Notes: generated from the letters alone by a model not told the origin. A stretch of 42,339 nt of DNA from Actinomycetota bacterium (GCA_947499275.1 CANMNM010000001.1:1-42339); one strand, 5' to 3'; shown: positions 4,431 through 23,954, counted from the first letter of the stretch. Translations and numbers: made by a program.

Positions 4431-5447
4431 ATGGAAAGGAAATCTACATTGATGCTTTCCACACCGGCACCTTTGGCCGTCGTTGCCTTGGGAGGAAATG
4501 CGATCACTCGTGAGGGGCAGGACGGGACATACCCCGAAATGCTAGCCAACTGCCAAGAAATGGCCGCGTCCGTGTGCGCACTGCGCGAAGCCGGTTGGCG
4601 AGTAGTGATCACACATGGAAATGGTCCACAGGTAGGAAACCTGGCCATCCAGCAGCATGCCGGATCCGCTGAAGTACCTGCACAGCCGTTATTTGCCCTG
4701 GGAGCAATGACCCAAGGGTTAATTGGGCACCTGATCCAAATGGCGCTGCTCAGTGTCCACAATCAACAACTCGGACCGGTCGTTGGAGTAGTTACTCATG
4801 TGATTGTTGACCGCCAGGACGAAGCATTCGATCGGCCTTCGAAACCAATAGGTCCTTTTTATTCACTTCAGGAGGCCCAAGCGCGTTCAGACCTCACCGG
4901 GCATCCGATTATTGAAGATTCTGGGCGCGGGTACCGCATCATCGTTCCATCACCACGCCCTCAAAGAGTTGTGGAAGGGGACGCAATATCCCGACTCTCA
5001 CAAGATGGGTATCTCGTCGTCGCGGGTGGTGGCGGTGGGATCCCTGTCGTGGAAATTGATGGGACACTCGAGGGCATCGAGGCTGTTGTCGACAAAGATC
5101 GAAGTGCCGCACTACTCGCTACTTATCTGGAAGCCGACGCTCTCCTTCTCGTCACCGGTGTCGAATGCGTCCTCGCTGACTTCGGGAAACCTACCCAAAG
5201 GGAAATTCATTTGGCCGATGCGGCACAAATGCGGGAGTACTCGAGGCAGGGGCAATTTCCTGCAGGCAGCATGGGGCCCAAGGTCGAGGCTGCTCTCGAC
5301 TTTGTTGACGCTACTGCTGGATTCGCCGTTATCACCGACGCCTCGTCGATGGCTTCAGCTTTAGGAGCATTAGGAACAGGCGTAACCCCTGGGACACGGA
5401 TCGTTCGAGAGATCCTCGAGTTACCAAAGCAAGGAGCCCTTCAGTGA
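4431..5447 (+). CDS. arcC: carbamate kinase
   Basis: The motifs VVALGGNAI and VITHGNGPQVG and a C-terminal AAK fold are present, and the length is typical. The stop overlaps the fdrA start (GTGA). Confidence 0.88.
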   Translation: MERKSTLMLSTPAPLAVVALGGNAITREGQDGTYPEMLANCQEMAASVCALREAGWRVVITHGNGPQVGNLAIQQHAGSAEVPAQPLFALGAMTQGLIGHLIQMALLSVHNQQLGPVVGVVTHVIVDRQDEAFDRPSKPIGPFYSLQEAQARSDLTGHPIIEDSGRGYRIIVPSPRPQRVVEGDAISRLSQDGYLVVAGGGGGIPVVEIDGTLEGIEAVVDKDRSAALLATYLEADALLLVTGVECVLADFGKPTQREIHLADAAQMREYSRQGQFPAGSMGPKVEAALDFVDATAGFAVITDASSMASALGALGTGVTPGTRIVREILELPKQGALQ

Positions 5448-6985: not shown

Positions 6986-8157
6986 TGACTTTAGACGGAC
7001 GGTTAGCACTTCTTACTTATTCCACGAAACCGCGTGGTGGTGTTGTCCACTCCCTTGAATTGGCAGAGGCCTTGAACCGCCAAGGGGTAGATGTTCATCT
7101 GTTTGCCTTGGGTTCACCCGGAACTTCTTTTTTTCGACCGACCTCCGTGCCGTTCACCCTTTTTCCGGCAGTGGATCAAGCGCAGAGCCTGGATGAAAAA
7201 GTTTTCGCATCGGTTGCTTCGATGGCCGAAGGTCTAGCCGGACTCCGTGACTCGTTTGATCTCATCCATGCACAGGACTGCATTTCGGGCCGGGCTGCCG
7301 TGGCGGTGTCCAGATCCGGACCAATCATCCCCGTTATTCGCACTGTCCACCATGTCGATGACTTCACCACTCAGGCGCTTATCGATTGTCAGCGACAAGC
7401 GATCGTAGAACCGGATCGGATCCTCGTGGTCAGTCGTACTTGGCAGAGCACCCTTCAGGAGGATTACGGGGTCCACGCTGACATTGTCCCTAATGGCGTG
7501 CGACCCGAACGGTTCCCGCAGATCTCAGATGCGGAAAAGATGGCCCTACGGGCATCAGTAGGAATCACAGACGGAAGCATGATTCTTGCTGTAGGCGGAG
7601 TCGAGCCACGCAAGGGCAGTCGCGAACTCTTTCAAGCAATGGGGATACTTAAAAGTCGCGGCCACCGGGTTCACTTGGTCATACTCGGGGGCCACTCCTT
7701 CCAAGACTACGAGGAGTACCGACAGGAAGCTCTGAGTCTGTTGCCTGAGCTAGGTTTGGAACTCGGTCGTGATGTGATCACCGTGGGCACGGTTGACGAG
7801 CAAGCCCTAGGCCAATGGTTCCGTGCTGCAGATGTCCTTGCTTATCCATCCACAAAAGAAGGGTTTGGCCTCGTTGCTCTCGAGGGCCTCGCCGCAGACC
7901 TTCCGGTAGTGGCAAGCAGCATCCCGGTTTTCAAAGAATTTCTTACCGATGGGGTAAGTGCGTTGCTCCCCGAAACGGGCAATCCAGAGGCAATTTCTGG
8001 TGCGATCGAATCCATTCTATTGAGTAGCGATCTGAGGTCACGACTTATTGCGGGTGGCCAATCTGTCCTCGCTGGTTACACGTGGGAAGCATCGGCAACC
8101 CGACACTGTGACATCTATCGTGAGGTACTGGAGAAATTTGGTCGAGCACCTAACTAG
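6985..8157 (+). CDS. GT4-family glycosyltransferase, MSMEG_0565-like
   Basis: The N-terminus reads LALLTYSTKPRGGVVHSLELAEAL. The C-terminal GT-B motif is YPSTKEGFGLVALEGLAADLPVVAS. The GTG start overlaps the fdrA stop by 1 nt. Confidence 0.75.
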   Translation: MTLDGRLALLTYSTKPRGGVVHSLELAEALNRQGVDVHLFALGSPGTSFFRPTSVPFTLFPAVDQAQSLDEKVFASVASMAEGLAGLRDSFDLIHAQDCISGRAAVAVSRSGPIIPVIRTVHHVDDFTTQALIDCQRQAIVEPDRILVVSRTWQSTLQEDYGVHADIVPNGVRPERFPQISDAEKMALRASVGITDGSMILAVGGVEPRKGSRELFQAMGILKSRGHRVHLVILGGHSFQDYEEYRQEALSLLPELGLELGRDVITVGTVDEQALGQWFRAADVLAYPSTKEGFGLVALEGLAADLPVVASSIPVFKEFLTDGVSALLPETGNPEAISGAIESILLSSDLRSRLIAGGQSVLAGYTWEASATRHCDIYREVLEKFGRAPN

Positions 8158-8543
8158 TGATCGTGATCGTGGTCATGATCATGGTCGTGCCCGTGGTCAT
8201 GATCATGGTCGTGCCCGGCTGGACGCAATGCAAGATCTCGCGCTCGACCTGACAGATCACTTGCAGTAACTAATTCACTGCTAATACTTACCTGTTCCAA
8301 GGCACTCAACCAGCACTGATAATAAGAGTATTCCTCGCCCGGTGTTTCCTGCTCCTCCCAAGTGGCGATCGCTGAAATTAATTCAGCGCGAAATTCTTCC
8401 CACGTGAAAGCACCTGACTCATGCAACGACATGACGAGTCCGAATGCTCGGCTCTGCCACGGCTCCTCAAAAACCAGTTCGCCATTGGACCTGGGTGGCG
8501 CTGCCGGACCATCAATGTCAAAATCAATCGTTGCAGTCATCAC
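8154..8543 (-). CDS. nitrile hydratase accessory (activator) protein with C-terminal His/Asp repeat tail
   Basis: The beta-subunit-like N-terminus reads [35 protein letters not shown]. The gene lies immediately downstream of NHase alpha with an ATGA overlap. The tail is [20 protein letters not shown]. Confidence 0.75.
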
Positions 8544-9136
8544 GCACTCACCTGAGCTACGCCCACCATGGCGTCACGGGTCACGAGAGCAGCGAGTTCA
8601 GCTTCGGATAATTCTTCAGTACCCGGGGGTCGCTGAGGTAACACGAAGAATCGCACCTCACTGCTGCTGTCCCACACGGTTATCTCCGTATCTGTGGGCA
8701 ATTCCAGTCCCATCTCAGCCAACACTGTTCTCGGTTCGCGCACGACGCGTGACCGATAGGCAGGATCTTTGTACCAAGCGGGTGGAAGGCCTAGTAGCGG
8801 CCATGGGTAGCACGAACATAAAGTGCACACAACAACGTTGTGTACTTCGGCGCTGTTCTCCACTACAACGAGATGCTCACCTTGAGGTCCCTTGAACCCT
8901 AATTCTGCAATCGCACCCGTGCCGTCGTCGAGGAGTCGTTGCTTGAATTCGGGATCCGTCCAAGCTTTGGCAACAACTTGGGCTCCATTGAGTGGTCCCA
9001 CATCTTTCTCGTAAGTCTTGATAAAAGTGTCCATCACCTGTGGGTCAACGAGCCCACGCTCTACCAGAAGCTGCTCAAGAGCCTCGGTCCGAAGATTCAT
9101 CGGGATCCGATCACTCGATGGTTGTGCTTTACTCAT
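8540..9136 (-). CDS. nthA: nitrile hydratase alpha subunit, cobalt type
   Basis: The metal-centre motif [21 protein letters not shown] is present; Thr and Tyr at the variable positions indicate the Co type. The length is 198 aa. Confidence 0.93.
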
Positions 9137-9816
9137 GATGCAGCCTCCAAATAGTCCTCGTACAGGTCGGTATTAAGTGTGAAATTTTCTGTATTTTCTT
9201 GATATAGCTCACGCGAATCGAAACTCACCGTGTACACCCATTGGGCGTTTTCAGCGATGAAATGTGCGTGTGTATCGGGAAGAATCTGCGCCGGTTCAAC
9301 GATGGCAACTGTCCCGACATGTCCTTGGGTGTACTTCTGCAGGCGCGTGTGACCTGGAGCATTCATCGTTTTTGCCCGAACTCGCTGGCCCACGCTGAAC
9401 TTGCGCGGTGCATCAATTTGTCGAATCGATCCCCCCGCAGTCGGGGCGTAATCGGGTTTATTGGATTCAGGTACAGGTGGCTCGTCCACGTGACCCCCCG
9501 CGATATTCGCAGCTCTCGCCTCAACTGCTCCCGGTGCAATGATTGCACTGTCCAGCAATAAATTCTCAGCGCCGTACAGCCACCGACCGTAGTAACCATC
9601 ATCGAAGTAGTGCTCTCGATCTAGTCGATTCATGGCATGCCTGAACGCGTCAAGATTTGACCCAGAAACTCTCATCGACAATAGGGCTAAGGCAAAGGCC
9701 CGCCCCTCCCATTTCTCAGGAAAAACCACCTCGTCGGGGTCAATAATCGGGGCTCGTCCCCAACCAGAATCGCCACCCATGTCGGCCACACCACTAGCCG
9801 GTTGAATTTCTATCAT
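9133..9816 (-). CDS. nthB: nitrile hydratase beta subunit
   Basis: The motifs [24 protein letters not shown] and a C-terminal SH3-like part are present. The ATG at 9816 is preceded by GAGGAG; the tracked ORF extends to 9918. The stop overlaps the alpha start (ATGA). Confidence 0.85.
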
Positions 9817-9876
9817 CAAACTCTCCTCATCTTTGGAAACCTGACGGCCCCTTAACCTCACGACTAAAGACCTGAT

Positions 9877-9915
9877 GCCTTGTGGGTGTTGAACAACGTC
9901 CAACACCCACAAGGC
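9877..9915 (-). other. 15-bp perfect stem-loop between the Sll0783-like gene and NHase beta
   Basis: The sequence is gccttgtgggtgttg-aacaacgtc-caacacccacaaggc. No U-tract follows on the transcribed (minus) strand. Confidence 0.5.
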
Positions 9916-9922
9916 CAAGCAA

Positions 9923-10411
9923 CTACAGGGTCCAGGTGTTCATCTGGAATGCGCCCTCACTCCAAGCTGTCAAGGCGGTGTCGAGCACGTCAAGCGGGTT
10001 GAACGGGATAACCCCTGGAATGAGATCATCTTCGCCGAATCCGTAAAGCGCACCCATCGCAAAGCGACATGCGTAAATCTTCGCGCCTTCTTTCATGAGC
10101 GTCTTGAGCTGCTCATTGATTGCGAGGTGACCTGGAAATGCGGCCATCCCAACACCGGGGTAACCGCGAGTGCCTGAGGCTGCGAGAACTCCGGGTCCAT
10201 AAAGGACGATACTGACTTCGAATCCTTTACGCACCAAACGCGTTGACGTCAACAAGTTGACTAACAGAACCGAACCTTCGTAGGGAACCGTGTGGATAAA
10301 AATGTATGCTTTCTGTCCAGCTTTGGCCTTAATGTCAGGGAATAGTTTTTCCTCTGCATTAAATAATGACTCTCCGTCTGCCGGTAGAGATCTGATTACG
10401 GTTTTTGGCAT
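9923..10411 (-). CDS. MSMEG_0572/Sll0783-like nitrogen-starvation response protein
   Basis: The motifs are LFNAEEKLFPDIKAK, FIHTVPYEGSVLLVNLLT, IYACRFAMGALYG and NPLDVLD...NTWTL. The ATG at 10411 is preceded by GGAGGAG; the tracked ORF extends to 10540. Confidence 0.7.
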   Translation of the reverse strand: MPKTVIRSLPADGESLFNAEEKLFPDIKAKAGQKAYIFIHTVPYEGSVLLVNLLTSTRLVRKGFEVSIVLYGPGVLAASGTRGYPGVGMAAFPGHLAINEQLKTLMKEGAKIYACRFAMGALYGFGEDDLIPGVIPFNPLDVLDTALTAWSEGAFQMNTWTL

Positions 10412-10446
10412 TACTCCTCCATCGTGTTGTGTTGTGTTGTGTTCAA

Positions 10447-10701
10447 CTAGATCGCCGGTCCCTCCGGCGACGTCTGTTTGGCCCAGTTCTTCCTGTGGCT
10501 TCCGGGCATCGCCACCATGATCCGTCTGCGTAGTCCCCACGGCATGATCCGGTAAATCGGAATGAATACACCGGTCCAGAAGAATTCACCACTCGTGCTT
10601 GGCGCCTCAATTCCGTGATTGCGTGCAACACGCGCTTGTGCATCACGCAATAAATAAAATTGGGCATTCTCGCGCAGCCACTTCGATGGTGATTTCATCA
10701 A
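10447..10701 (-). CDS. small protein in the MSMEG_0570 position of the cluster
   Basis: This 84-aa ORF has a start overlapping the flavoprotein stop (ATGA). Its position between the flavoprotein and Sll0783-like genes mirrors MSMEG_0569-0570-0572. The family assignment is positional only. Confidence 0.5.
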   Translation of the reverse strand: MMKSPSKWLRENAQFYLLRDAQARVARNHGIEAPSTSGEFFWTGVFIPIYRIMPWGLRRRIMVAMPGSHRKNWAKQTSPEGPAI

Positions 10702-12041
10702 CGCCCCAACTGCGACGCAACACCCTTTTGGGCAGCCACCGCGATCGGCTCATTGAGTGCACCTATTGGTGGTGAGTACACATTTTCCATGGTGGCCAGG
10801 TCGTACAGCGTCAATCCAGCCTTGACCGCTACTCCGAGGAAGTCAGCTCTTTCTTTGATTCCTTCTCCGCCCACCATTTGGGCTCCGATAAGGCGTAGTG
10901 TTCCTTTTTCGGCGATGAGCTTCACCCGAACTTTTTTAACTCCCGGGTAGTAACGAGCTCGCGAGATACCGTCAGCCACCGCCACCACGTGCGGCACGCC
11001 CAACGCATTCGCTGTCACTTCGCCAAGTGCAACTCCGCCGATCATCCACTTCCCGGCCACCATGCCCCAGGGGACATACACAGGGTTGTACGTTCGGGTC
11101 CCACCAGCAGCATTAGCGCCGGCCACTTTCCCCTGGGCGTACGCGTGGCTCCCGGTAAGACCTTGGAGCGGTAAACCGCCGAGACCATGGGGAATCTCGC
11201 ACACATCACCGCTGGCCCATACGCCGGCCGCTGATGTCTGCATGCTTCCGTCAACGATGAGCCCGCCCGTGCTGCCAGTTTTTAATCCAGCCGCGATCGC
11301 CAACTCATTATTTGGGACCTTGTGCGTGGCCACAACAACAAGATCGCATTCGATGTCTCCCCCTGATGTGCGAACTCCGCGTACGGCGCCTGACTCATCG
11401 CCGAGAAACTCTTCCAAGGTTGTGTTCCAGTGCATGGTGACACCAAGCTCCGTCCACGACTCATGGACGAGTTCGACAATGTCTGGATCTGCCACTTCCC
11501 CGAGCGCCCATGGGTTCGGATCGATCACATGAGTTTCTATTCCCCGGTGAGCTAGAGCCGTGATCATTTCAACGCCGAGAGGACTGGCTTCCACAACGAC
11601 CGCCTTTTTGACGGTGTCAAGACGTTTATCCCACTCCATTGCTTCACGGATATTCTTCACGTAATAAAGCCCATCAAGGTCCCCACCGGGCACTCCCGGG
11701 TTCGCATAGGAGAAACCCGTCGCGATGACGAGAGAGTCGTAGTGCATCGGCTGGCCAGATTCGATCTGAATAGTCTTCGAACTTGTGTCTATTGAAGTGA
11801 TCTTCGTCTGGTACCGGATATCAATGCCCGCATCGACGTAAGCCTGCTTATCAGCCAGAAATAATGCTTCAAAACTTGGAATTTCTTTTCCATGTACGAA
11901 GGGAATTCCGCAGGGACTGTAGGCGACGTCTTCATTCTCGGTGAAGACGGTGACTGATGCCGAGGGGTCCACTGCTTTGGCACCACCGGCGGCTCCGAGT
12001 CCCGCGCCTCCGCCTCCGATGACGATAATATGCTGTGCCAC
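10698..12041 (-). CDS. FAD-dependent pyridine nucleotide-disulfide oxidoreductase (MSMEG_0569 position; NADH oxidase/CoA-disulfide-reductase-like)
   Basis: It has an N-terminal IVIGGGGAGLGAA dinucleotide fold and a single redox Cys in YSPCGIPFV. A second Rossmann motif (VVVEASPLGVE) and GVWASGD are also present. Confidence 0.8.
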   Translation of the reverse strand: MAQHIIVIGGGGAGLGAAGGAKAVDPSASVTVFTENEDVAYSPCGIPFVHGKEIPSFEALFLADKQAYVDAGIDIRYQTKITSIDTSSKTIQIESGQPMHYDSLVIATGFSYANPGVPGGDLDGLYYVKNIREAMEWDKRLDTVKKAVVVEASPLGVEMITALAHRGIETHVIDPNPWALGEVADPDIVELVHESWTELGVTMHWNTTLEEFLGDESGAVRGVRTSGGDIECDLVVVATHKVPNNELAIAAGLKTGSTGGLIVDGSMQTSAAGVWASGDVCEIPHGLGGLPLQGLTGSHAYAQGKVAGANAAGGTRTYNPVYVPWGMVAGKWMIGGVALGEVTANALGVPHVVAVADGISRARYYPGVKKVRVKLIAEKGTLRLIGAQMVGGEGIKERADFLGVAVKAGLTLYDLATMENVYSPPIGALNEPIAVAAQKGVASQLGR

Positions 12042-13319: not shown

Positions 13320-14405
13320 GTGGACCGCACTCGAATCCGTGAACTTTTATTTCTGTTCCTTGCCGTAGCCGCGCTCAATATCGCTGGGTGGGGGACGTAC
13401 GCCTATTACTTACGTGCTGAACCGGCTAATACCGCTTACGTGGGAGTAGGGCTTGTGGCGTATTTCCTAGGGGTAAGACATGCCTTTGATGCGGACCACA
13501 TCGCAGCGATTGATGACAGTGCAAGATTAATGGTCAACCAGGGACGTCGCCCGATTGGTTTAGGGTTCTACTTTGCAATTGGTCACTCGACAGTGGTCTT
13601 GCTGATGTGTGTGGGAGTGAGTGTTCTTGCCGGAACCTTCGTCTCGTCCGGCCAAATCTATCTGCAAGACGTTGGTGGCCGGATCGCCGCTCTGGTAGCA
13701 GCCATTTTTCTCTTGGTCGTCGGATTTTTAAACTTTAAGGTTCTACAACGGCTTCGAAACACCAAACGAGATCTGAAAAGCGGTGCGATCAGCCCGGCTG
13801 AGTTGGAGTCACGTCTCTCTGGTGCATCGCCTTTTGCTCGACTCCTTGGTGGTAAAACAATGAACCGGCTGCAATCAAGTTGGCAGATGTTTCCCATCGG
13901 TTTCATCTTTGGACTCGGGCTTGAGACTGCTTCAGAAGTCACGCTACTCAGCCTCTCCGCCGCGGGTGCCGCGGCAGGTGACCTACCAATTGGCGCCATT
14001 CTCGCTCTGCCCCTTTTGTTTGCGGCAGGTATGACGCTGTGTGATTCCATCGATTCGGTCACCATGGTCCATGCGTACAGTTCGGCAAGCACTACGGCCC
14101 ACGACCGACTGTTTTTTAACATTCTCATGACGGGAATCACAGCGACGATCGCGACATTTGTTGGGGCGATCTACCTCTCTCAGGTTCTCGTTGATGAAGT
14201 TGGAATTCGCGTCCTAGAACCAATTGCCCAAATAAATGAGCATTTTGAGATACTGGGTTACGTCATTGTTTCCGTCTATTTTGTCGTTTGGGCGTGTGCG
14301 TTTTTGGTGTGGCGCAGATCAAAGAAACGCGCCAAGTCCAATGTTGTCGGCGAGTACCGCAGGGCCATAAGTGCACCGTATGCCAAGTCCAGTCCTGATG
14401 AGTGA
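13320..14405 (+). CDS. NiCoT (HoxN/HupN/NixA/NhlF) family nickel/cobalt transporter
   Basis: The TM2 signature RHAFDADHIAAIDD and the second signature FGLGLETASEV are present. The protein is about 8 TM segments and 361 aa. Confidence 0.85.
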   Translation: MDRTRIRELLFLFLAVAALNIAGWGTYAYYLRAEPANTAYVGVGLVAYFLGVRHAFDADHIAAIDDSARLMVNQGRRPIGLGFYFAIGHSTVVLLMCVGVSVLAGTFVSSGQIYLQDVGGRIAALVAAIFLLVVGFLNFKVLQRLRNTKRDLKSGAISPAELESRLSGASPFARLLGGKTMNRLQSSWQMFPIGFIFGLGLETASEVTLLSLSAAGAAAGDLPIGAILALPLLFAAGMTLCDSIDSVTMVHAYSSASTTAHDRLFFNILMTGITATIATFVGAIYLSQVLVDEVGIRVLEPIAQINEHFEILGYVIVSVYFVVWACAFLVWRRSKKRAKSNVVGEYRRAISAPYAKSSPDE

Positions 14406-15109
14406 CCAAGCTCCGCGAGCCGGGCGCGGGAAACGCGCGCTGCTCCTTCCTGTCCGCGAGAGCATTCCTGCAAAAGAGTGTGAAGTGTTTCAATCGACTG
14501 CCCCACCGCGGCCCATCTCAGAAATGCGCGCGAAATCTCATGCGTAGCTGCGGCACGCGCGATCTCCTGGCGCATCTCCCGGTTATGACCACCAAGCATC
14601 GAGTCAACTACAAGAATCCCCGCCGCAACATCGTCACCTGCTGGCGTTAATCCAATCCCGCGGCCAATGACCGATGCGCAGGCACCGGCGAGATCACCCA
14701 CTTGCAAGAAACTCGCCAGTTCTTCCTCCAATAGGTGGCCCGGTGATGAACCCAAAGTGAGATCGGGGACGTGACCCAATACGGTTGCGAGAAGTCCAGT
14801 TGCTCGATTGATATCCGGGTTCGCCGCGGGTACCCACAGATGCTCAGAGACGGGCACGATTTGATCGACCACGCACAATTCTCCATCACGCACTTCTACC
14901 GGATCGCCTAAGGAACCCAGTGGCAAAGTGTGCATTCGGGCATGGAGAGGGCCCGAAGGGACGCTAGCGATAGTGAGTGCGAATACGTGTTCGCCCACCT
15001 GGATATACATCGCCTTACGAAAGCTGGCAATGACCCGGCCCGCAGAGTTTCTTTCGAGGCCTTCGCGAACTCCCTCCCCCGCGTCAAGGGGAAGGGTCAC
15101 TCCGTTCAT
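14276..15109 (-). CDS. DUF2877 (YlbF-like) protein
   Basis: The gene follows the DUF1116 gene with a 4-nt overlap, as in E. coli ylbE-ylbF. It contains GRGIGLTPAGDD. The family call rests mostly on position and size. Confidence 0.5.
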   Translation of the reverse strand: MNGVTLPLDAGEGVREGLERNSAGRVIASFRKAMYIQVGEHVFALTIASVPSGPLHARMHTLPLGSLGDPVEVRDGELCVVDQIVPVSEHLWVPAANPDINRATGLLATVLGHVPDLTLGSSPGHLLEEELASFLQVGDLAGACASVIGRGIGLTPAGDDVAAGILVVDSMLGGHNREMRQEIARAAATHEISRAFLRWAAVGQSIETLHTLLQECSRGQEGAARVSRARLAELGHSSGLDLAYGALMALRYSPTTLDLARFFDLRHTKNAHAQTTK

Positions 15110-16521
15110 TTTCCCTGGTTAACAAGCTCGACTAGGGCTTGCCCAAACCCTTCAAGCGGCGCCGTCGCGACGCCAGCTCCTATCTGCCCTACCCCTGACG
15201 AAAGATGAAGAATTCCTGTGGTGACCTTGGGGCTAATTCCAGTCTCAACCACTTTTCGCACATCCACGCCAAGTGGGGTGCCTCGAAAGCCCATCGTCGG
15301 CAATTTGAATCGGCTGCTTTCTGACACACATATCCTTCTCATATCTTCGGTGGCCCGGGCAGCATCAGACATCGACCCACCGAGAAAAGCCGCCACCGCT
15401 GGAGACCCTGCTGCAGCAGCCCCCCCAAGCCCAATCAACTCGAGTACCGCACTGTCACCCATGTCAAGGGCGGCATCTTCCGAGCTGAAACCCGCGTAAT
15501 ACAACGCATCTGCCACCGGAGGAGCCGGACAAATATGCCAACGAGGTGAATCCCCCACCTTCACGCCAAAAGTGGTTCCGTTGCGCGCCATGGTCGTGAC
15601 AATCGTTGAACCAGACACTTGCTCCGCTGCGAGCATCAGTGACTTTGCCGCCGCCATAGCAATTGTCAGAAAGAAGAGGTGATTCTTGGACAAATAATGA
15701 GCGAACGCCACCGAGCCTTCATCATTTCCCAATCGGGCAATTGATGTAAGCACATCGCGGATCAAAAGATTTGTCGTCGCCTGCGTACGCATATGAACGT
15801 CGTCGCCCATTTGCACGCCCTGTGATGCTAAGGACAGGATGTCAATCGGACCACTTTCCTTGAGGATCTGTGCGATTCTCGGCTGGGCAACCTCCCGTAA
15901 GAAGATCAGCCTTTCTATCGCCGCTGGCGACTCACGCCCAAACCACGGAACATCCCCCGGACCCTGGTTGACGGGCGCGAATCCAACTGTCCCAGACTCC
16001 GCATTCTCAGCTATCCACACCGGGGTCGTAGGTCCGATAGCTGAAGCCATCGGCACGACGGTCCCATGATCATTGGCGGCAGCAAGTGCGACGGAGCCAT
16101 CCGCGAGCAACCGGTCAGCTGTTTCAACATCTTGCGCCCAACCTTCCGCAACTGTTGCAGCGCGCATCGATCGCCGTACCGGATCACATACGAATTCATA
16201 AGCAATGGGTGGACCGGCATGCAGCAGGGTGCGATCGGGAAGTGTAGACAATGCATCCCGTGCGGCCGCCACTCCAATGAGCATCGGAACTCCCTTGTCA
16301 ATCCTGCGAATTGCTTCGACATTCGCCTTGTCGTATTCCAGAGAATTCATCGCGTAAGAATCAGTGAGCGCCCTGAGAAGAACCGGTGAATTTCCCGAAG
16401 GGACGCGCCAGTCAACGTGAATCACCTCAGCATCTTGTTCGCGGATCGCTTCCGCGAACAATGGCAATCCAACGTTGATTACTGCCGCGTTCTCTGGCAA
16501 CTTATGCAGGGTTGTTTCCAT
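15106..16521 (-). CDS. DUF1116 (YlbE-like) protein
   Basis: The N-terminus ENAAVINVGLPLFAEAIREQDAEVIHVDWRVP is typical of YlbE-type proteins. The length is 471 aa. It partners FdrA and the carbamate kinase in this window. Confidence 0.7.
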   Translation of the reverse strand: METTLHKLPENAAVINVGLPLFAEAIREQDAEVIHVDWRVPSGNSPVLLRALTDSYAMNSLEYDKANVEAIRRIDKGVPMLIGVAAARDALSTLPDRTLLHAGPPIAYEFVCDPVRRSMRAATVAEGWAQDVETADRLLADGSVALAAANDHGTVVPMASAIGPTTPVWIAENAESGTVGFAPVNQGPGDVPWFGRESPAAIERLIFLREVAQPRIAQILKESGPIDILSLASQGVQMGDDVHMRTQATTNLLIRDVLTSIARLGNDEGSVAFAHYLSKNHLFFLTIAMAAAKSLMLAAEQVSGSTIVTTMARNGTTFGVKVGDSPRWHICPAPPVADALYYAGFSSEDAALDMGDSAVLELIGLGGAAAAGSPAVAAFLGGSMSDAARATEDMRRICVSESSRFKLPTMGFRGTPLGVDVRKVVETGISPKVTTGILHLSSGVGQIGAGVATAPLEGFGQALVELVNQGK

Positions 16522-16538
16522 ATTCGTGACTCACTTCC

Positions 16539-17993
16539 TTATTGTTGGACGAGTTCTCGGGCGCGGATCAGCAGATCGGATTCTGCCGATTCAATATTGT
16601 GCTGCTCAGTGCCCAAGAGTGTGCGCAGATCAAGGGTCGCCGCCAGAAGACTTTCAGCCATGGCTGTGACGGTGTCTGGGGCTGCACCTCCGATCGACTT
16701 TCGCGATTGAATCAAAGTCATTGGATCAAAGATCTCGTCCAACTCACCGGTCTCGACTTGTTTCGGATCAAACCCACCGTCTTTGAGCGCCCATGTGATG
16801 TCCTCCGCGGAAATTCCTCGATCCCCCTCCGCGGCGTGCGTAAGCGCAGTGCGAACGACACGGTGAGAAGTGAGGTAGTCCAGTCCACACGAACGCATCA
16901 GGAGATGGGCGACATCAGCGGCCTCGGTATTCGCACCGTCGATTGCCGATTTCATGCGAGCTTCATGTACCACGAGGTCACGCACCACTGAGGTCAGCAA
17001 TCGTGTTACCTGACCAGCCAGGGCTAACGATCGAGGAAGTTCTCCGTAGGCATAAATGTATGTATCACTGCGAGCCGAGGGAGCCTTAGAAAGGGCAAGT
17101 TGTCCCGTCAGACGACCGATCAAAATCCCAGTTGAGCCCCTGATCACCGAAAGTGCATACGGATTACGTTTTTGGGGCATAAGCACACTGGGTCGCACCG
17201 ACGAGTCCCCCAATGACAAGAAGCCGAATTCCCTGCTGGCGAAGATTTCGAGGTCTTCTGCGAGCCGATCCTGACCCAGAGTCAAAGTGGTGGCGGAAAA
17301 AAGTACGTGCAAAAATGGATCCGTCTGCCACATGGCGTCGCGGACATGCTCGATCGGTTTATTGAATCCGAGGTTATGGGCCGCGCGCACGCGGTCTCGA
17401 ATAACTACCGACCCATTTGCACCACCGGATCCGGCCACGCTCGAGTTAACATGAACGTACTCAGCAAGTAATCGATTAGCGTCTCGAAGTATCGGGTCGG
17501 CAAACGACAATAAATAGTGACCGAATGTCGAGGCCTGCGCCGGTTGGAGATACGTATAGTCGGGCATTAGTGAGTGGGAGTGCTCAATACTCCGCGCGCA
17601 GATCGCCTCGATCAACCCACACGAGTCCTGTGTCAGTGCGAGCACCTGTTTGCGTACCACTAGTCGGTAGGCCGTGCGAACTGCCTCCCGTCGCGTTCGA
17701 CCAGCTCGTAGTGAACCAGCGACCGGTCCTATGAGCTCGACAAGAAACTGTTCTCGACACGTCACCATCTCACCGATTGACGGGTCATAATTAATTTCTG
17801 AGCTGGATAAGGATTCGAGGTGAAGGAGACCACCGAGCAGGGTCCGTGTCTCTTCGCGCGAGATCGCTCCTGCATCAAATAAATCCAATGCATGTGCAAT
17901 ATCTGCGAGATTAAGTGCATTGTGCAGAATGGGAGCATCGGCAATCTCCCACGCGTACCCGGATTCAGTGAGTTCCGGGGAGATATCAAACAT
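16539..17993 (-). CDS. argininosuccinate-lyase-like enzyme (fumarate lyase superfamily)
   Basis: The superfamily signature SVLMPQKRNPY is present, with an upstream VAGSGGANGS loop. The length is 484 aa. Confidence 0.75.
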   Translation of the reverse strand: MFDISPELTESGYAWEIADAPILHNALNLADIAHALDLFDAGAISREETRTLLGGLLHLESLSSSEINYDPSIGEMVTCREQFLVELIGPVAGSLRAGRTRREAVRTAYRLVVRKQVLALTQDSCGLIEAICARSIEHSHSLMPDYTYLQPAQASTFGHYLLSFADPILRDANRLLAEYVHVNSSVAGSGGANGSVVIRDRVRAAHNLGFNKPIEHVRDAMWQTDPFLHVLFSATTLTLGQDRLAEDLEIFASREFGFLSLGDSSVRPSVLMPQKRNPYALSVIRGSTGILIGRLTGQLALSKAPSARSDTYIYAYGELPRSLALAGQVTRLLTSVVRDLVVHEARMKSAIDGANTEAADVAHLLMRSCGLDYLTSHRVVRTALTHAAEGDRGISAEDITWALKDGGFDPKQVETGELDEIFDPMTLIQSRKSIGGAAPDTVTAMAESLLAATLDLRTLLGTEQHNIESAESDLLIRARELVQQ

Positions 17994-18993
17994 TTTTGGC
18001 TACCACGCTTTCACGGTTGCCCATCACGGTAAGTGATTCAATCGCCGCCGGCAATCCTCCCGTTAGCCACCACACAACAGTGTCATTGGAGGCACCGGTT
18101 ATGTGAGAAATTATCTCGTAAGCCGGGACACCGTATGTCGGGTCGAGAAGAACTCCAACGCGCCAGAATGCTTCATCTCGTGCAAACGCACCATTTTCAT
18201 CTAGCTCTTGATCATGGAATCCCACTGCGTCAATGATGGTGAAATTGGTCATCGATGGTGCCCCTCGTCCCAAAAGTTCTGAGGTTTGCGTTGACAAGTC
18301 AGTAATGACTCCACGCATCTCATCCACATTTCGGCTCACTGACACCCCAACAACTTTCCACATCGCTCCCAAGAAATCACTGCCCGCAAGGAACCCTGCA
18401 ATCGATGCACCAGACCCAACGGGAAGCACCACGGTTACTTGATTGGGATCCGTCCCCCTCACGTTGCATTGCTCATACAGTTCAATTGCAGCTCTGGCAA
18501 AGCCCAAGCCACCTACTGCAGTAGCACCACCGCGGGGAACGGGGTACGGCCTTCGGCCTTCGGCCGCCAACTCCGCTGCCCGACGTTCGACCTGTTCATT
18601 TATTAACGAGCGGTCTTGCCCGGTGAAGTGAATCACCGCGCCAGTTGCCTGCGCCATTAATAGGAGTACGGGCCAAGCCTCCATGGGATCTCCCGCCACC
18701 TCAATTTCACAATCAAGACCGACTGCCGCTGCCGCATGTGCACAGGCTCCAATAAAATTAGACCCTGCCGCTCCACCGGTAACGACAACATTGGAGTCGC
18801 ATTTGAGCGCGTCCGCCATGAGATATTCCAATGGCCTTACTTTGTTGCCGGCTAGCCCGAAACCCGTGAGATCGTCACGCTTGAGGAGAACGGGGGCAGC
18901 CGCGTCGATCTGCCACGGAGCGGCGAGGTGCAGGGGTGTCGGAAATTGACCCAGGTGAGTTCGAGGAAATCGATCAGTCGGATTCACTGGCAC
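17986..18993 (-). CDS. PLP-dependent enzyme, ACC deaminase/D-cysteine desulfhydrase family
   Basis: The motifs FPTPL, KRDDLTGFGLAGNKVRPLEYL (PLP lysine) and VTGGAAGSN are present. Confidence 0.75.
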   Translation of the reverse strand: MPVNPTDRFPRTHLGQFPTPLHLAAPWQIDAAAPVLLKRDDLTGFGLAGNKVRPLEYLMADALKCDSNVVVTGGAAGSNFIGACAHAAAAVGLDCEIEVAGDPMEAWPVLLLMAQATGAVIHFTGQDRSLINEQVERRAAELAAEGRRPYPVPRGGATAVGGLGFARAAIELYEQCNVRGTDPNQVTVVLPVGSGASIAGFLAGSDFLGAMWKVVGVSVSRNVDEMRGVITDLSTQTSELLGRGAPSMTNFTIIDAVGFHDQELDENGAFARDEAFWRVGVLLDPTYGVPAYEIISHITGASNDTVVWWLTGGLPAAIESLTVMGNRESVVAKNV

Positions 18994-20357
18994 CCATTTC
19001 GATCAGTGACAGGCTGTGTTTCAATCAGTGACAGACAGTGGTCGATAAGGGGCCCGGTGGTGGGCTCGGTATTCATCCACTCGAGCACGATTTCCTGTGA
19101 CACGTTGGCTGCTGCGGCAATCAATGCTGCAATCGATTGAATATCTTCGGTCCCATCTCTTTCAGAGAGAGCCACCTGCATCAATTCCTGCGCCTGATGT
19201 TTTCCCATCTGTGCAGACAGAGCTCGCAGAACCGACTCTGTGTTTCCCGTGCCTGAGGATTCGAGATTGCGCAGCATCTTCTCTGGATGAACGCGCAGCC
19301 CAGCAGCAAGTTCTGCCGCCACGCTAGCTGCCTTGCCTGTGCACATAGCGACCTCGGGCAACATGGCCCACTCGGCCTTCCAACTTCGGCCATCTCGTTC
19401 ATGACTGGACACGACACCCTCAACGAGAACTCCAGCCGCGGCACGCGCAATCCGCGACAAGGTGTCCAGGTGCTCACTCAATTCCGGGTTTTGCTTGTGC
19501 GGCATGGTGATGCTGCCGACTGCGTGGACATCTCTTGGTTCGCTGAGCTCCCCAATTTCTGGTCGAGCCAACTCGTAGATTTCGTTGCCGATCCGAGCAA
19601 GTGATGATGCCACCGTCGCCATGGTTGTCCCGAATTCTGCGATCCTGTCTCGGGTGGCCGTCCACGACATACCGGGGTCACCCAGTCCGAGAAGTTCGCA
19701 AAATCTGCTCCGTAGTTCCAAGCCCTGATCGGGGAAAAAAGCGAGTCCGCCGGTCGACCCGGCGAGCTGCCCCACGCTCCACCGCGTCCGCGCCCCGTCG
19801 ATCCGTTCAATGTGACGATTAATCTCGTCCGCCCACGTTGATACTTTGAATCCGAATGTCACCGGTGTACCCGGTTGGCCGTGGGTGCGACCAGCAATTG
19901 GAGTATCGCGGTGTTTCTTTGCCAATTCCACACACGAATCGCGTAGCTTTACAAGGTCCGCACGGATTAAGTCACCGCTATCGCGCATGATCATGCCAAA
20001 CCAGGTATCTGTCAGGTCTTGAACCGTAATTCCAAAGTACACGTACTCTCTGGACGAACTATTAAGAATCTGCTGTAGTCCACGGATGAGTCCCAGGGTC
20101 GAGTGTGATGTTCGCCGGGTTTCCGAACTGATGAAATCTTCATCTAGTAATTCCACCCGTGCTTTGCTCGCGATACCCTCGAATGCGGCGTCGGGGATAA
20201 TTCCTAGTTCGGCTTGGGCTTGTGCCAACGCCACGAGAATATTGAGCCAAGCCTGCAGTCGATGCTTCTGCTCAAAAATACGATCGAATTCAGGTGTACT
20301 CCATCCATGGGCATACATGGATGAAGTGGTCAAACGGTTGTCCACGCCGGGTCCCAT
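18984..20357 (-). CDS. adenylosuccinate lyase / 3-carboxymuconate cycloisomerase-like enzyme (fumarate lyase superfamily)
   Basis: The motifs GSITMPHKQNPELSE, TVQDLTDT and GRTHGQPGTPVTFG are present. An alternative start at 20318 would remove the 28-nt overlap with the upstream gene. Confidence 0.75.
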   Translation of the reverse strand: MGPGVDNRLTTSSMYAHGWSTPEFDRIFEQKHRLQAWLNILVALAQAQAELGIIPDAAFEGIASKARVELLDEDFISSETRRTSHSTLGLIRGLQQILNSSSREYVYFGITVQDLTDTWFGMIMRDSGDLIRADLVKLRDSCVELAKKHRDTPIAGRTHGQPGTPVTFGFKVSTWADEINRHIERIDGARTRWSVGQLAGSTGGLAFFPDQGLELRSRFCELLGLGDPGMSWTATRDRIAEFGTTMATVASSLARIGNEIYELARPEIGELSEPRDVHAVGSITMPHKQNPELSEHLDTLSRIARAAAGVLVEGVVSSHERDGRSWKAEWAMLPEVAMCTGKAASVAAELAAGLRVHPEKMLRNLESSGTGNTESVLRALSAQMGKHQAQELMQVALSERDGTEDIQSIAALIAAAANVSQEIVLEWMNTEPTTGPLIDHCLSLIETQPVTDRNGCQ

Positions 20358-21256
20358 GCACGTGCCAATTCATTGATCGCTTCACGGATGTCAGCCAAAG
20401 ATGCACCCCATGGCACGATCACCCGGCCATTCTCAATTTCTATTGACTCCTCGAGGAGGCAGCACTTTGTTATTGTTGCCATTCCCGAGGATTCTTCGCG
20501 TTCCCTTGGGCAGAAGGACACCATCGGCGGGCGGTCGCCATAGAACCACTCATGTATTTGTGCGGATCGTTCACATCCGACCAAGGTCCAATCTTCGCGA
20601 TCGGGACGTTGGTCTAGGTAGGAAGTGCGGGCACCAACAATTTCCGTGTCAGCGCCCCGGCAGGGAAGAAGGTAGTGCCCACTCGGAATTTTCGATCCAA
20701 ACGAATCCAACGTCAATGCATCGAGGTGCGCGATTATCGGGGGTAAGTCTTCGGCCACCTCGAGGAGCCGGCACACCTGATCAAACAGTTTCGCAGGAGT
20801 CGGGGGGACTACTTCAGTGACGTTGATGTTCAGTGGTTGTGGATTGAGAATAAAACTGACGTGGGAGTACAGGCCTTCAACAACGACGGCCTTCGCTTGA
20901 GGGGCGTGATTCGCTGCGGCGCGCGCTAGATTGGACGGAACTGCCGTGTCAATGCTTGCATCGACGACGAAGGAACACTCAGTCGGATCCGCCAGGATCT
21001 CGACACTCGTCACGGGCGAAAAGAGGGGAACGGGGTCCGCTCTCTGGACCGCTGCCAGCCAGACCCCATTCGGCTCATGGACCACGATGAAGCGAGTTCG
21101 TCGGTACACCTCTCTACCGGTGAAGTATTCAATGAGGGACTCCCCGGTGAAGGAGTCTGTCGAGTGGGTCACGGAGACACCTCGGTAGGCACTGGGAACC
21201 ACATTGAGCCGAGATCGAAGAAGGACTTGACCGGGGTCTGTCCTGGTTCCGCTCAC
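20330..21256 (-). CDS. hypothetical protein, Cys-rich C-terminal part, no recognisable family
   Basis: This 308-aa ORF is translationally coupled on the upstream side (ATGA-type overlap with the ComA-like gene). Its C-terminal Cys pattern is PCRG...GCERS...FCPRE...KCCLLE. Confidence 0.55.
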   Translation of the reverse strand: MSGTRTDPGQVLLRSRLNVVPSAYRGVSVTHSTDSFTGESLIEYFTGREVYRRTRFIVVHEPNGVWLAAVQRADPVPLFSPVTSVEILADPTECSFVVDASIDTAVPSNLARAAANHAPQAKAVVVEGLYSHVSFILNPQPLNINVTEVVPPTPAKLFDQVCRLLEVAEDLPPIIAHLDALTLDSFGSKIPSGHYLLPCRGADTEIVGARTSYLDQRPDREDWTLVGCERSAQIHEWFYGDRPPMVSFCPREREESSGMATITKCCLLEESIEIENGRVIVPWGASLADIREAINELARAWDPAWTTV

Positions 21257-22038
21257 CTATGCACTCCCGAGGACTGGGAAATGCCAACGGCAACCAACGC
21301 GGTATCAGCACGCAGTCCTAGACGAAGAGTTTGTAAGGGAAGTAGATCCTCAGGCGCGACGTTGCCCACATTCACTTCTGGTCCATGTGTATTGATGAAC
21401 CAGGCTTGCTGATCTTTTCGAGGCGCCTCAAAAAGCACACGATCGAGCCCTGCCGCCAGCAATGCCGCGTCGATGACTTCAGTTTGTGGAGTCCCGTGGG
21501 AGTCATAAACACCAACGGTGCCACTCTCTCGTCCTTCAGCCACAATGTATTCGGCCCCAGCAACCAAGTCACCCGTGATTTCCGAATGCCATTGAGCTGG
21601 AGTGAGAAGTCGTTCGGCACTCTTGTACCCGGTTTCGGCAAATACCCGAAATGACTGCGCCGATGTGCGAATGAGTTCCCACTTTTCTTCCATGCCCATA
21701 TCTGCTGCACCTCGAGAAACCTCAACCGCTGTAAATCCGGCCTGTTCCGCCCAATTGAGGCATTCACTTACACGTCCCTGCGACCAAGCGATCTCCAACA
21801 ATGTGCCTCCGAGGCAGGCTGTGATCCCGTGTTCGCGCAGGAGTCCAATTTTTGACGCCAAATGCTTTTCTACATAAGCAGTTCCCCAACCGAACTTCCA
21901 CACATCGGCAAACTCCGCGTACGAAGACAGGTGGCTTTCCATCGATCCGAGTGAAATTCCCTTATCCAGCACGTGTGTCAGCCCGATGGAGCGTGGCTTC
22001 TCAGGCAGAACCGGAAGGCTCAGGAAATTGTTCGACAT
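21253..22038 (-). CDS. phosphosulfolactate synthase (ComA) family protein
   Basis: The motifs LPEKPRSIGLTHVLDKG, DVWKFGWGTAYV and EVSRG fit the ComA TIM-barrel family. It is the first gene of the 7-gene minus-strand operon. Confidence 0.7.
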   Translation of the reverse strand: MSNNFLSLPVLPEKPRSIGLTHVLDKGISLGSMESHLSSYAEFADVWKFGWGTAYVEKHLASKIGLLREHGITACLGGTLLEIAWSQGRVSECLNWAEQAGFTAVEVSRGAADMGMEEKWELIRTSAQSFRVFAETGYKSAERLLTPAQWHSEITGDLVAGAEYIVAEGRESGTVGVYDSHGTPQTEVIDAALLAAGLDRVLFEAPRKDQQAWFINTHGPEVNVGNVAPEDLLPLQTLRLGLRADTALVAVGISQSSGVHR

Positions 22039-22121
22039 GTGTCCTATACTACGCGTACTTTCACTTTACGACATATCTACCCGTGAATATTCTGCGCATT
22101 GTTACTACATTGGAGGACTCC

Positions 22122-23129
22122 ATGGGCCCAAAGGACACTGCCCGAGCACAACTTGATGACGTTGCAGCAGCTGTGGCAGGTAATAGCGCCATTGCGGCCA
22201 AGCGCGAAATAGGTCTCGTCAGCGAGGCCTTAGGGTCGTCGGGTTTCGTCGAGGGTCCCGGGGATGACGGCGCGGCCATTGCGATTGGTCACACACTAGG
22301 AATCGTATGCGGAGAAGCAATGTGGCCACCATTTGTCGCGGCAGACCCTCGCGGGGCTGGAATAGCCGCAATTCTTGCCAACGTAAACGACGTTGCTGCG
22401 ATGGGTGGCCTGCCCTTGGCAATTGTTGACACCATAGCTGCGGATGAAGCCACAGCGCGTGAAATTCTCAGTGGTCTCGCCTATGCCTCATCCTTGTACC
22501 GAGTCCCCATTGTTGGCGGACACCTCACGCTCACAGATGGGCCGCCCAGCTTGTCTGCATTTGCGCTCGGCCACACTGACAATCTTTTATCGACCACGAA
22601 TGTTATGGCAGGTCAAGATCTTGTCGTGGCCGCGTGCATTGAAGGATCAATGCATCCAAAATTCCCGTTCTTTGCTTCTTTTACTGAACGAGGCGACAGT
22701 CTCGGTGATGACGTGCGTCTTCTGGCACAAATTGCCAAAGACGGCATTGCTGTCGCCGCCAAGGACATCAGCATGGCCGGACTTATCGGCTCACTGGCCA
22801 TGCTCTTGGAGTGGGGGTCTTTCGGTGCAGAGCTCAACCTCGACGTGCTCCCAAGGCCTGAAGGCGTCTCGCTGGCTGACTGGTGCAACTGTTTCCCATG
22901 CTTTGGGTTCATCATGTGCTGTGAACCATCCAGAACTAATGAATGCGTCGAAGTTTTCACTCGCACCGGTCTCGCAGCTGCCAAAGTTGGGTCCATAAAT
23001 GGCTCAGGCAGCATCGAGATCCTCGCTGGCGGAGAACGCCGAGAGGTAATGAATTTGCTTGAAGAGACGGTTACCGGCCTAGTTCGATCACCGAGTAACA
23101 GCTCAGCAGTTCCCGTGAAAAACACCTAG
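22122..23129 (+). CDS. AIR-synthase-related (PurM superfamily) protein, Sll0787/MSMEG_0566-like
   Basis: The motifs GPGDDGAAI, ANVNDVAAMGG and PIVGGH are present. The ATG at 22122 is preceded by GGAGGA; the tracked ORF start at 21852 would overlap the divergent ComA-like gene. Confidence 0.75.
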   Translation: MGPKDTARAQLDDVAAAVAGNSAIAAKREIGLVSEALGSSGFVEGPGDDGAAIAIGHTLGIVCGEAMWPPFVAADPRGAGIAAILANVNDVAAMGGLPLAIVDTIAADEATAREILSGLAYASSLYRVPIVGGHLTLTDGPPSLSAFALGHTDNLLSTTNVMAGQDLVVAACIEGSMHPKFPFFASFTERGDSLGDDVRLLAQIAKDGIAVAAKDISMAGLIGSLAMLLEWGSFGAELNLDVLPRPEGVSLADWCNCFPCFGFIMCCEPSRTNECVEVFTRTGLAAAKVGSINGSGSIEILAGGERREVMNLLEETVTGLVRSPSNSSAVPVKNT

Positions 23130-23858: not shown

Positions 23859-23954
23859 TCATTGTTTCGCTGTAGCTTGGATCAATTACCCGTAATTTGT
23901 TAGGGTGATGGAAACGAGGATGCGGCTCACCCCGAAACATTGATCCAGATAAAT

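Follow-up and report, generated by a model that had tools for sequence, protein, structure and literature searches.

An operon of the xcb (coenzyme M biosynthesis) kind with allG- and allH-like genes in an actinobacterial Nit1C-like supercluster

A seven-gene operon with a core of five xcb-type genes

We analysed a stretch of 42,339 nucleotides from an Actinomycetota bacterium (GCA_947499275.1, CANMNM010000001.1:1-42339; the whole of it is called the window here), in which seven minus-strand genes are arranged head to tail between positions 22038 and 14276. An earlier reading of the stretch, made from the sequence alone, had singled out these genes as a translationally coupled operon, and all seven open reading frames (ORFs) were found where it had placed them. 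Five of them, contiguous at 16539-22038, represent all five enzyme families (Pfam and NCBIfam) of the xcbABCDE pathway, the bacterial route by which Xanthobacter autotrophicus Py2 makes coenzyme M (CoM) from phosphoenolpyruvate (PEP), sulfite and cysteine (Wu et al. 2022, PMC9457059). The other two resemble allG and allH of Escherichia coli. The genes are listed here in the order in which they are read; domain scores are from Pfam, and best-model scores are from NCBIfam, each set against the curated cut-off of its model.

21253..22038, minus strand: xcbB, putative phosphosulfolactate synthase of the ComA family (PF02679, 252 bits)
20330..21256, minus strand: xcbA, DUF7714 protein of the [2Fe-2S] reductase type (NCBIfam XcbA family, 339 bits, cut-off 150)
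18984..20357, minus strand: xcbD, ADL-like member of the aspartase/fumarase superfamily (CoM_syn_XcbD, 549 bits, cut-off 600; purB, 255 bits)
17986..18993, minus strand: xcbE, pyridoxal 5'-phosphate (PLP) protein of the D-cysteine desulfhydrase/1-aminocyclopropane-1-carboxylate deaminase family (CoM_syn_XcbE, 212 bits, cut-off 450)
16539..17993, minus strand: xcbC, ASL-like member of the aspartase/fumarase superfamily (CoM_syn_XcbC, 412 bits, cut-off 575; argH, 230 bits)
15106..16521, minus strand: allG-like gene (DUF1116; PF06545, 215 bits), product 38% identical to E. coli AllG
14276..15109, minus strand: allH-like gene (DUF2877; PF11392, 75 bits), product 30% identical to E. coli AllH, C-terminal domain

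From xcbB onwards the junctions are a 4-nt overlap (21253-21256), overlaps of 28, 10 and 8 nt, a 17-nt gap and a final 4-nt overlap, exactly as first reported. If xcbD starts at ATG 20318, the alternative that had also been pointed out, the 28-nt overlap becomes an 11-nt gap to xcbA; two further candidate starts are GTG 20345 and TTG 20333, and coupling is preserved with each. Internal promoters or terminators had been named as signs that would speak against co-transcription. A consensus scan found no excess of either, with fewer sites in the operon than in shuffled sequence (promoter-like, 3 compared with 6.3±3.0; terminator-like, 6 compared with 10.1±3.5). A weak terminator-like hairpin lies 3' of the last gene, at 14242-14225. 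In a scan of the window at Rfam gathering thresholds only a tRNA-Thr was matched, and no riboswitch or leader was found near the operon.

The family assignments of the sequence-only reading stand in Pfam (ComA, PF02679; Lyase_1 twice; PALP; DUF1116 and DUF2877, now named AllG and AllH), as does its remark that ComA-family enzymes add a nucleophile to PEP. The protein that it had called an orphan is not one, being a member of Pfam DUF7714 and of the NCBIfam XcbA family; clustered at 90%, its homologues number over 2,000 (for DUF7714, >2,166, falling into 444 clusters at 50%).

The Xcb models are the top NCBIfam matches by wide margins despite a shortfall against the cut-offs, which XcbA alone exceeds. 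XcbB scored 227 bits on arch_ComA, under the cut-off of 280, and matches the solved phosphosulfolactate synthases 1u83 and 1qwg. Identities to the proteins of Xanthobacter and Nocardioides JS614, respectively, are 34% and 48% for XcbB, 42% and 43% for XcbA, 42% and 46% for XcbD (42-50% across reference XcbD proteins), 38% and 39% for XcbE (37-39% across references) and 37% and 44% for XcbC (37-46% across references). This range of 34-48% is about that found between Xanthobacter and JS614 themselves (36-45%).

Signature residues were judged by alignment with the proteins of Xanthobacter, JS614, Mycolicibacterium chubuense NBB4 and Methylocystis. Conserved in the window are the XcbC loop RxSVLMPQKRNPYA, which is common to JS614 and Methylocystis XcbC, the XcbD loop GSITMPHKxNPE, the XcbE lysine motif GGNKVR and the XcbA cysteines C199, C228, C249, C265 and C266, five residues that are invariant across 29 homologues. 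The two lyase motifs quoted in the sequence-only reading, SVLMPQKRNPY and GSITMPHKQNPE, were located in xcbC (16539-17993) and xcbD (18984-20357), respectively. The AlphaFold model of XcbA is confident (pLDDT 90.9, pTM 0.86) and has no meaningful structural neighbour in the PDB (best TM 0.18), nor does the sequence match any PDB entry. The predicted fold appears to be unrepresented among solved structures and is uninformative on mechanism.

The presence of two class-II lyases had been taken to suggest two aspartate-dependent amination cycles, like those of ArgH and PurB, in a pathway that could not be named. Both proteins do belong to the aspartase/fumarase superfamily and keep its signature loop. 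However, the XcbC model (412 bits) outscores argH (230 bits), and the XcbD model (549 bits) outscores purB (255 bits), by wide margins, which argues that the two lyases are not aspartate-dependent aminating enzymes, and neither Pfam nor NCBIfam revealed an ArgG- or PurA/PurC-type synthetase partner in the operon. Of the characterised homologues, XcbC eliminates phosphate and XcbD adds cysteine (PMC9457059). Amination is thus contradicted by homology, and we give it next to no credence.

Predicted chemistry, conservation and promoter

With the steps assigned by homology to the Xanthobacter enzymes, XcbB would join PEP and sulfite to form phosphosulfolactate, from which XcbC would release phosphate by beta-elimination to give sulfoacrylate. 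XcbD, whose NCBIfam model is named 3-sulfopropionylcysteine synthase, would then add the thiol of cysteine to sulfoacrylate, and the PLP enzyme XcbE would cleave and decarboxylate the resulting 3-sulfopropionyl-cysteine to sulfoethanethioaldehyde. Reduction of this compound by the Fe-S protein XcbA would yield 2-mercaptoethanesulfonate, which is CoM, or a very close sulfonate thiol.

XcbE also scores 141 bits on the NCBIfam model of the cysteate sulfo-lyase CuyA. Organosulfur compounds are scavenged by freshwater actinobacteria, and this habit, like the kinship of XcbE to CuyA, would suit an operon of catabolic direction that degrades an environmental sulfonate (sulfolactate, or CoM) to PEP and sulfite. 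We regard such a direction as highly improbable: the characterised homologues are all biosynthetic, phosphate elimination would be unlikely to reverse, and neither a sulfonate transporter nor a sulfite exporter or oxidase is found among the annotated ORFs of the window.

A search for the gene order in public genomes gave 80 related GTDB loci, the closest matches to the query. All five xcb genes are carried by 67 of these loci, and in every one of the 67 they stand in the order B-A-D-E-C on the same strand. Such an arrangement is far beyond chance. The exact window proteins are also present on a metagenomic scaffold (ENA ERZ28613768), and the closest GTDB loci, at 90-99% identity, are freshwater metagenome-assembled genomes labelled Candidatus Nanopelagicales or Actinobacteria. 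By its GC content the sequence looked enterobacterial, but a megablast search with the operon gave no match in any complete E. coli genome, and both synteny and the nearest loci point to an actinobacterium. Other carriers include Nocardioidaceae, Streptosporangiaceae, Micromonosporaceae, Nonomuraea, Streptosporangium, Planosporangium, Jiangellaceae, Jatrophihabitantaceae, Dermatophilaceae and Acidimicrobiia; an xcb-allG unit in Streptomyces and Asanoa was reached through close AllG homologues. Carriers available in culture include Planosporangium flavigriseum TBRC 198, Nonomuraea sediminis H16431, Nocardioides guangzhouensis 130 and Asanoa hainanensis. In neighbour-joining trees the branching of this chromosomal xcb clade broadly tracks taxonomy.

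The reference xcb clusters were taken from plasmids. The order is A-B-C-D-E in the cluster of Xanthobacter Py2, whereas the B-A-D-E-C order of the window is identical to that on the plasmids of the ethene and vinyl-chloride degraders JS614 and NBB4. The five families, the signature loops and the five XcbA cysteines are conserved between the window and these clusters. In JS614 a CoA-disulfide-reductase-like single-Cys flavoprotein is encoded next to xcbB, and the flavoprotein encoded in the window is 31% identical to it. Unlike the references, the window cluster is chromosomal, in a freshwater actinobacterium of the Nanopelagicales type, has no alkene monooxygenase, EaCoMT or 2-KPCC gene nearby, includes allG and allH, and is embedded in a larger supercluster related to Nit1C (described below).

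A conserved promoter element lies directly 5' of xcbB:

22039..22074, minus strand: conserved promoter with a -35-like box (ATGTCG/TTGTCG), a spacer (GAAAGTGAA) and a -10 box (TAGTAT)

In the window the element reads ATGTCGTAAAGTGAAAGTACGCGTAGTATAGGACAC-ATG (22074-22039), and the consensus across loci is TTGTCG-GAAAGTGAAC-N8-TAGyAT-AGGCAAC-GTG, which can also be written TTGTCGGAAAGTGAAC-N(about 8)-TAGyATAGGCAAC-GTG. Of 81 loci, 72 have the element immediately 5' of xcbB, even though protein identity is no more than ~50%, and it is the single site of its kind in 59 loci. That it is essentially unique per locus supports xcbB being the first gene of its own transcription unit. Since the -10 box ends 7 nt short of the xcbB start codon, and leaderless mRNAs are known from actinobacteria, the transcript is probably leaderless. 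Within the window no further copies precede the other supercluster operons; a weak second site was found before the radical SAM gene in three loci. When the element was compared with GlnR and PhoP boxes, neither gave a convincing match.

The allG- and allH-like genes and their candidate partners

The sequence-only reading could place its gene combination in no known pathway, and held that the finding would be weakened if the set proved to be an annotated one. For five of the seven genes this is so, since the core is the published xcbABCDE pathway for CoM, and the finding is weakened to that extent; the pathway does not, however, account for allG, allH or the genomic context. Both extra proteins score above the Pfam gathering thresholds (PF06545 and PF11392), and the only solved DUF1116 relative is the uncharacterised structure 3clq. 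In E. coli, oxamic transcarbamylase requires all three of its subunits (AllF, AllG and AllH), and its transfer of the carbamoyl group from carbamoyl phosphate is reversible (oxalurate + Pi <-> oxamate + carbamoyl phosphate; PMC11326118). Genes for an FdrA/AllF-like protein and a kinase lie in a separate coupled operon, 8-10 kb from allG/allH:

4431-5447, plus strand: carbamate kinase, 37% identical to E. coli AllK
5444-6985, plus strand: FdrA/AllF-like protein, 38.5% identical to E. coli AllF
6985-8157, plus strand: MSMEG_0565-family glycosyltransferase (NCBIfam), last gene of the kinase-FdrA operon 4431..8157

Compared to the E. coli system of AllF, AllG, AllH and AllK (PMC11326118, PMC9843812), the window has homologues of all four proteins, at 30-38.5% identity, split between two operons ~8 kb apart. 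A second difference concerns the boundary between subunits. Some 45 C-terminal residues of E. coli AllF (507-551) align at 40% identity to residues 8-52 of the window AllG (16368-16500), whereas the FdrA-like protein of the window stops at a position equivalent to AllF residue 492 and is without the AllF C-terminal segment. That this segment has migrated between the two subunits is an argument for interaction of the FdrA-like protein with AllG. The allantoin/ureidoglycolate genes allB, allC, allD and allE are not among the annotated ORFs of the window, and we consider oxalurate or oxamate unlikely as the substrate of the window enzyme. From these comparisons we conclude that AllG and AllH would be functional partners of the FdrA-like protein and the kinase (4431-6985), most likely in a carbamoyl-phosphate-linked transferase and not in additional steps of CoM synthesis.

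The position of allG is itself conserved. Of 64 loci, 62 carry it, and in 56 it lies directly 3' of xcbC, often overlapping the xcbC stop codon (by 1-4 nt in Streptomyces and Asanoa); in a few loci (L050, L051, L055 and L064) it stands beside fdrA and the kinase gene and not beside xcbC. Given the tight coupling to xcbC, there is a possibility that the transcarbamylase acts on the thiol or on an Xcb intermediate.

The allH-like gene and a convergent NiCoT gene overlap tail to tail by 130 nt (14276-14405), and the public assembly calls them in the same way. The C-terminus of one or the other may be shorter than called.

A Nit1C-like supercluster and the candidate role of the thiol

The operon, with a promoter element of its own, is one module of a supercluster of about 22 kb (1905-23780) that is conserved across Actinomycetota and whose remaining genes are as follows.

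1905-2399, minus strand: MSMEG_0567/Sll0786-family GNAT protein (NCBIfam, 88 bits, cut-off 68)
2396-3655, minus strand: MSMEG_0568-family radical SAM protein (NCBIfam, 382 bits, cut-off 304)
3714-4367, minus strand: conserved protein of 217 aa without a family match, between the radical SAM and carbamate kinase genes
8154-9918, minus strand: Co-type nitrile hydratase beta and alpha subunits and accessory protein (CTLCSC motif), in a coupled operon 8154..12041
9923-10411, minus strand: MSMEG_0572/Sll0783-family protein (NCBIfam, 199 bits, cut-off 110)
10447-10701, minus strand: conserved ORF of 84 aa, overlapping the flavoprotein stop by 4 nt
10698-12041, minus strand: CoA-disulfide-reductase-like flavoprotein with Cys44 (single-Cys motif of the CoA-disulfide reductase type)
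12194-12820, plus strand: helix-turn-helix-cupin regulator, in 23 of 42 long loci
12770-13237, minus strand: OsmC-family peroxiredoxin
13320-14405, plus strand: NiCoT metal transporter, near the nitrile hydratase genes
22122..23129, plus strand: AIR-synthase-like protein, divergent from xcbB, with the sll0787/Nit1C family as best match (TIGR04049, 258 bits, under the cut-off of 321)
23250-23780, plus strand: multi-pass membrane protein of 176 aa without a family match, 3' of the AIR-synthase-like gene

Four hallmark families of the cluster called Nit1C or gpr exceed their curated cut-offs in the window: MSMEG_0565 (the glycosyltransferase, part of the cluster in mycobacteria; 376 bits, cut-off 260), MSMEG_0567/Sll0786, MSMEG_0568 and MSMEG_0572/Sll0783. 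Nit1C dates from a 2005 study that described it as conserved and functionally uncharacterised (PMC1199592). In Mycobacterium smegmatis it is induced by GlnR in nitrogen starvation and confers peroxide resistance (PMC6039565), and in Pseudomonas it is required for cyanide assimilation (PMC7815647). With the clusters of M. smegmatis (MSMEG_0565-0572) and Synechocystis (sll0783-0787) the window shares the glycosyltransferase, GNAT, radical SAM and MSMEG_0572 proteins, the small ORF and a flavoprotein; its AIR-synthase-like protein resembles the sll0787 type but scores just under that cut-off. It differs from canonical Nit1C in having a Co-type nitrile hydratase in place of the Nit6803 nitrilase, a flavoprotein that is CoA-disulfide-reductase-like and not of the MSMEG_0569 type, and the additional xcb, fdrA/allG/allH, carbamate kinase and OsmC genes. 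Moreover, canonical Nit1C is one operon of seven to eight genes, whereas its parts in the window lie on both strands at 1905-3655, 6985-8157, 9923-12041 and 22122-23129.

Supercluster content was followed by tblastn and iterative hidden Markov model searches of all window proteins against the loci. Counts refer to the 42 loci of at least 20 kb, in which the ±10-kb flanks cut off some components: AllG was found in 41, the AIR-synthase-like protein in 39 (its gene adjoining xcbB in all 39), OsmC in 38, the CoA-disulfide-reductase-like flavoprotein in 36, the MSMEG_0572-like protein in 34, the glycosyltransferase and the FdrA-like protein in 27 each, and the radical SAM protein and carbamate kinase in 26 each. 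The components thus accompany xcb in varying arrangements. The 217-aa protein (3714-4367) is kept in 39 loci, including Methylocystis, and the 176-aa membrane protein occurs only in loci of the Nanopelagicales type (14 loci). The 84-aa ORF, which corresponds to Nit1C ORF6 and matched no NCBIfam family, sits between the flavoprotein and MSMEG_0572-like genes in 31 loci and in Methylocystis; since it is present, the MSMEG_0572-like gene probably starts at 10411 and not at 10540. The accessory slot varies, with larE/larB/larC-like genes of the nickel-pincer cofactor type following the glycosyltransferase in Streptomyces (L089, 18263-21010). The nitrile-hydratase slot holds an Amidohydro_2 protein in Asanoa (L090, 14619-15476) and a Nit6803 nitrilase in Methylocystis (L084, 9294-10307); neither the window nor the 80 loci yielded a homologue of the latter.

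A plasmid of Methylocystis iwaonis (Alphaproteobacteria) carries xcbBADEC immediately next to a Nit1C cluster of canonical form that includes the Nit6803 nitrilase, together with DUF1116, FdrA-like and OsmC genes, and its flavoprotein is 59% identical to that of the window. The plasmid represents an intermediate form, canonical Nit1C plus xcb, and since it carries both, the linkage crosses phyla. The same plasmid has EaCoMT-like fragments (L085, 5665-5999, 58-67% identity) ~17 kb from xcbB, apparently a pseudogene.

Two of the supercluster proteins were compared with other families. On 'methanogenesis marker 2 protein' (TIGR03267), a methanogen family, the AIR-synthase-like protein reaches 179 bits, and here it is encoded beside an operon of the CoM type. 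An analogy of this protein to HypE holds at the superfamily level only, and the HypE model is absent among its NCBIfam matches. Identification of the flavoprotein as 2-KPCC was ruled out by an identity of 22-24% and by its single-Cys motif.

Since the operon is a module of this conserved supercluster, its thiol would probably serve the supercluster system and not alkene or epoxide metabolism. Taking the evidence together, we consider it likely that CoM or a close sulfonate thiol is made by the Xcb route, and that the co-expressed transferase subunits work with their nearby partners, in the service of a Nit1C-like nitrogen-starvation and redox system. Several observations weigh against this reading. 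XcbC, XcbD and XcbE stay under their NCBIfam cut-offs (412<575, 549<600 and 212<450, respectively), and of the five proteins XcbE diverges most; for these reasons we assign the operon to the Xcb kind and only infer, with a slight leaning in its favour, that the product is exactly CoM. The chromosomal clade is separated in neighbour-joining trees from the plasmid clade of alkene users (Xanthobacter, JS614 and NBB4). Searches by tblastn with Xanthobacter and JS614 queries found no homologue of EaCoMT, 2-KPCC or CoM dehydrogenase in the window or the 80 loci, and since a CoM-consuming enzyme is missing from them, there is no known use for CoM here. Among the 42 long loci allH was found in only 16, and it is missing near allG in most; the translational coupling of allG to xcbC in many genomes could mean that AllG acts on a pathway intermediate. 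Finally, the 80 loci being the closest matches to the query, the statistics hold for this clade only.

The same shortfall against the specific models, the 37-39% identity of XcbE to the references and the distinctness from the alkene clade would also fit xcb-like enzymes that make a related but different sulfonate building block, with XcbD, for example, using another nucleophile or XcbE stopping at a product other than sulfoethanethioaldehyde. This block would then be built into a larger molecule, a new low-molecular-weight thiol or cofactor served by the flavoprotein as reductase and OsmC as peroxidase, by the glycosyltransferase, GNAT, radical SAM and AIR-synthase-like proteins, whose genes are annotated as biosynthetic and constantly co-occur with xcb. 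A GT4 glycosyltransferase together with a GNAT protein recalls mycothiol and bacillithiol synthesis (with weak MshA and BshA matches), and the homologous cluster of M. smegmatis gives peroxide resistance (PMC6039565). However, all five Xcb steps and their motifs are kept, for which the same end product is the simplest explanation, canonical Nit1C clusters function without xcb genes, and the glycosyltransferase, radical SAM and GNAT genes lie within 10 kb in only 26-27 of the 42 long loci. We therefore regard a different sulfonate block as unlikely.

Returning to CoM or a close relative as the product, its use can be pictured in more than one way. Many Actinomycetota, including abundant freshwater lineages of the Nanopelagicales type, might make it as the dedicated thiol of the Nit1C/gpr system of nitrogen starvation and peroxide resistance, with the transcarbamylase, carbamate kinase, nitrile hydratase (or nitrilase) and flavoprotein acting on S-linked CoM adducts, which we hold to be distinctly unlikely. 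An example of a route, to be taken with the same reserve, would lead from S-cyano-CoM through S-carbamoyl-CoM and carbamoyl phosphate to NH3 and ATP. A related proposal would have AllG/AllH, together with the FdrA-like protein and the kinase, use the CoM thiol or a compound of the Xcb route directly as substrate; in one version they would interconvert S-carbamoyl-CoM and carbamoyl phosphate in a thiol-mediated route that draws nitrogen from cyanide or nitriles, with the nitrile hydratase hydrating an S-cyano adduct. The coupling of allG to xcbC in most genomes is consistent with this, as are the reversible carbamoyl transfer by the E. coli enzyme (PMC11326118), the requirement for Nit1C in cyanide assimilation by Pseudomonas (PMC7815647) and its induction by nitrogen starvation (PMC6039565), and a C-N hydrolase slot that is filled by a nitrile hydratase, nitrilase or amidohydrolase according to the genome. 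The proposal is nevertheless built by inference throughout, the AIR-synthase-like protein has no specific HypE similarity, and the Methylocystis cluster has neither the kinase nor AllH; direct action of this kind is, in our view, very unlikely.

As of 2024, the known occurrence of CoM biosynthesis genes was stated to be limited to methanogens and to bacteria that use alkenes aerobically (PMC11507031), and our literature search turned up no paper that connects CoM or xcb genes to Nit1C, to DUF1116 or to actinobacteria that do not use alkenes. As a pathway, the five-gene core is already known; its junction with allG and allH, its constant Nit1C-like linkage and its wide spread in Actinomycetota without nearby alkene genes appear to be new. 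If these organisms do make CoM, the biology of the cofactor would be wider than, and different from, what has been assumed. For Nit1C/gpr, whose phenotypes concern the assimilation of cyanide, nitrogen starvation and resistance to peroxide, the xcb linkage offers a testable handle on biochemical function in the form of a candidate small-molecule thiol and a candidate link to carbamoyl phosphate. Alkene and vinyl-chloride degraders may have drawn their plasmid-borne CoM genes from this chromosomal actinobacterial pool.

Beyond the supercluster, a tRNA-Thr(TGT) gene lies at 25582-25654 on the plus strand, followed by carD-ispD-ispF-cysS-rlmB (26884-30991, minus strand) and by a block at 32428-37602 that encodes a response regulator/histidine kinase pair, phoU, a GT4 glycosyltransferase (MshA-like), ybjN and a histidine phosphatase. 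We take the latter block to resemble the mycobacterial senX3-regX3/mshA/gpm order; this is an ordinary chromosomal setting with actinobacterial synteny. The 22-kb supercluster is bracketed by a direct repeat of ~0.77 kb with 83% nucleotide identity (895-1653 and 23949-24713). The right-hand copy includes a strong terminator hairpin (23992-23955), and each copy holds a gene for a fasciclin-domain lipoprotein, the two proteins being 79% identical; the repeat could mark a duplication or insertion boundary.

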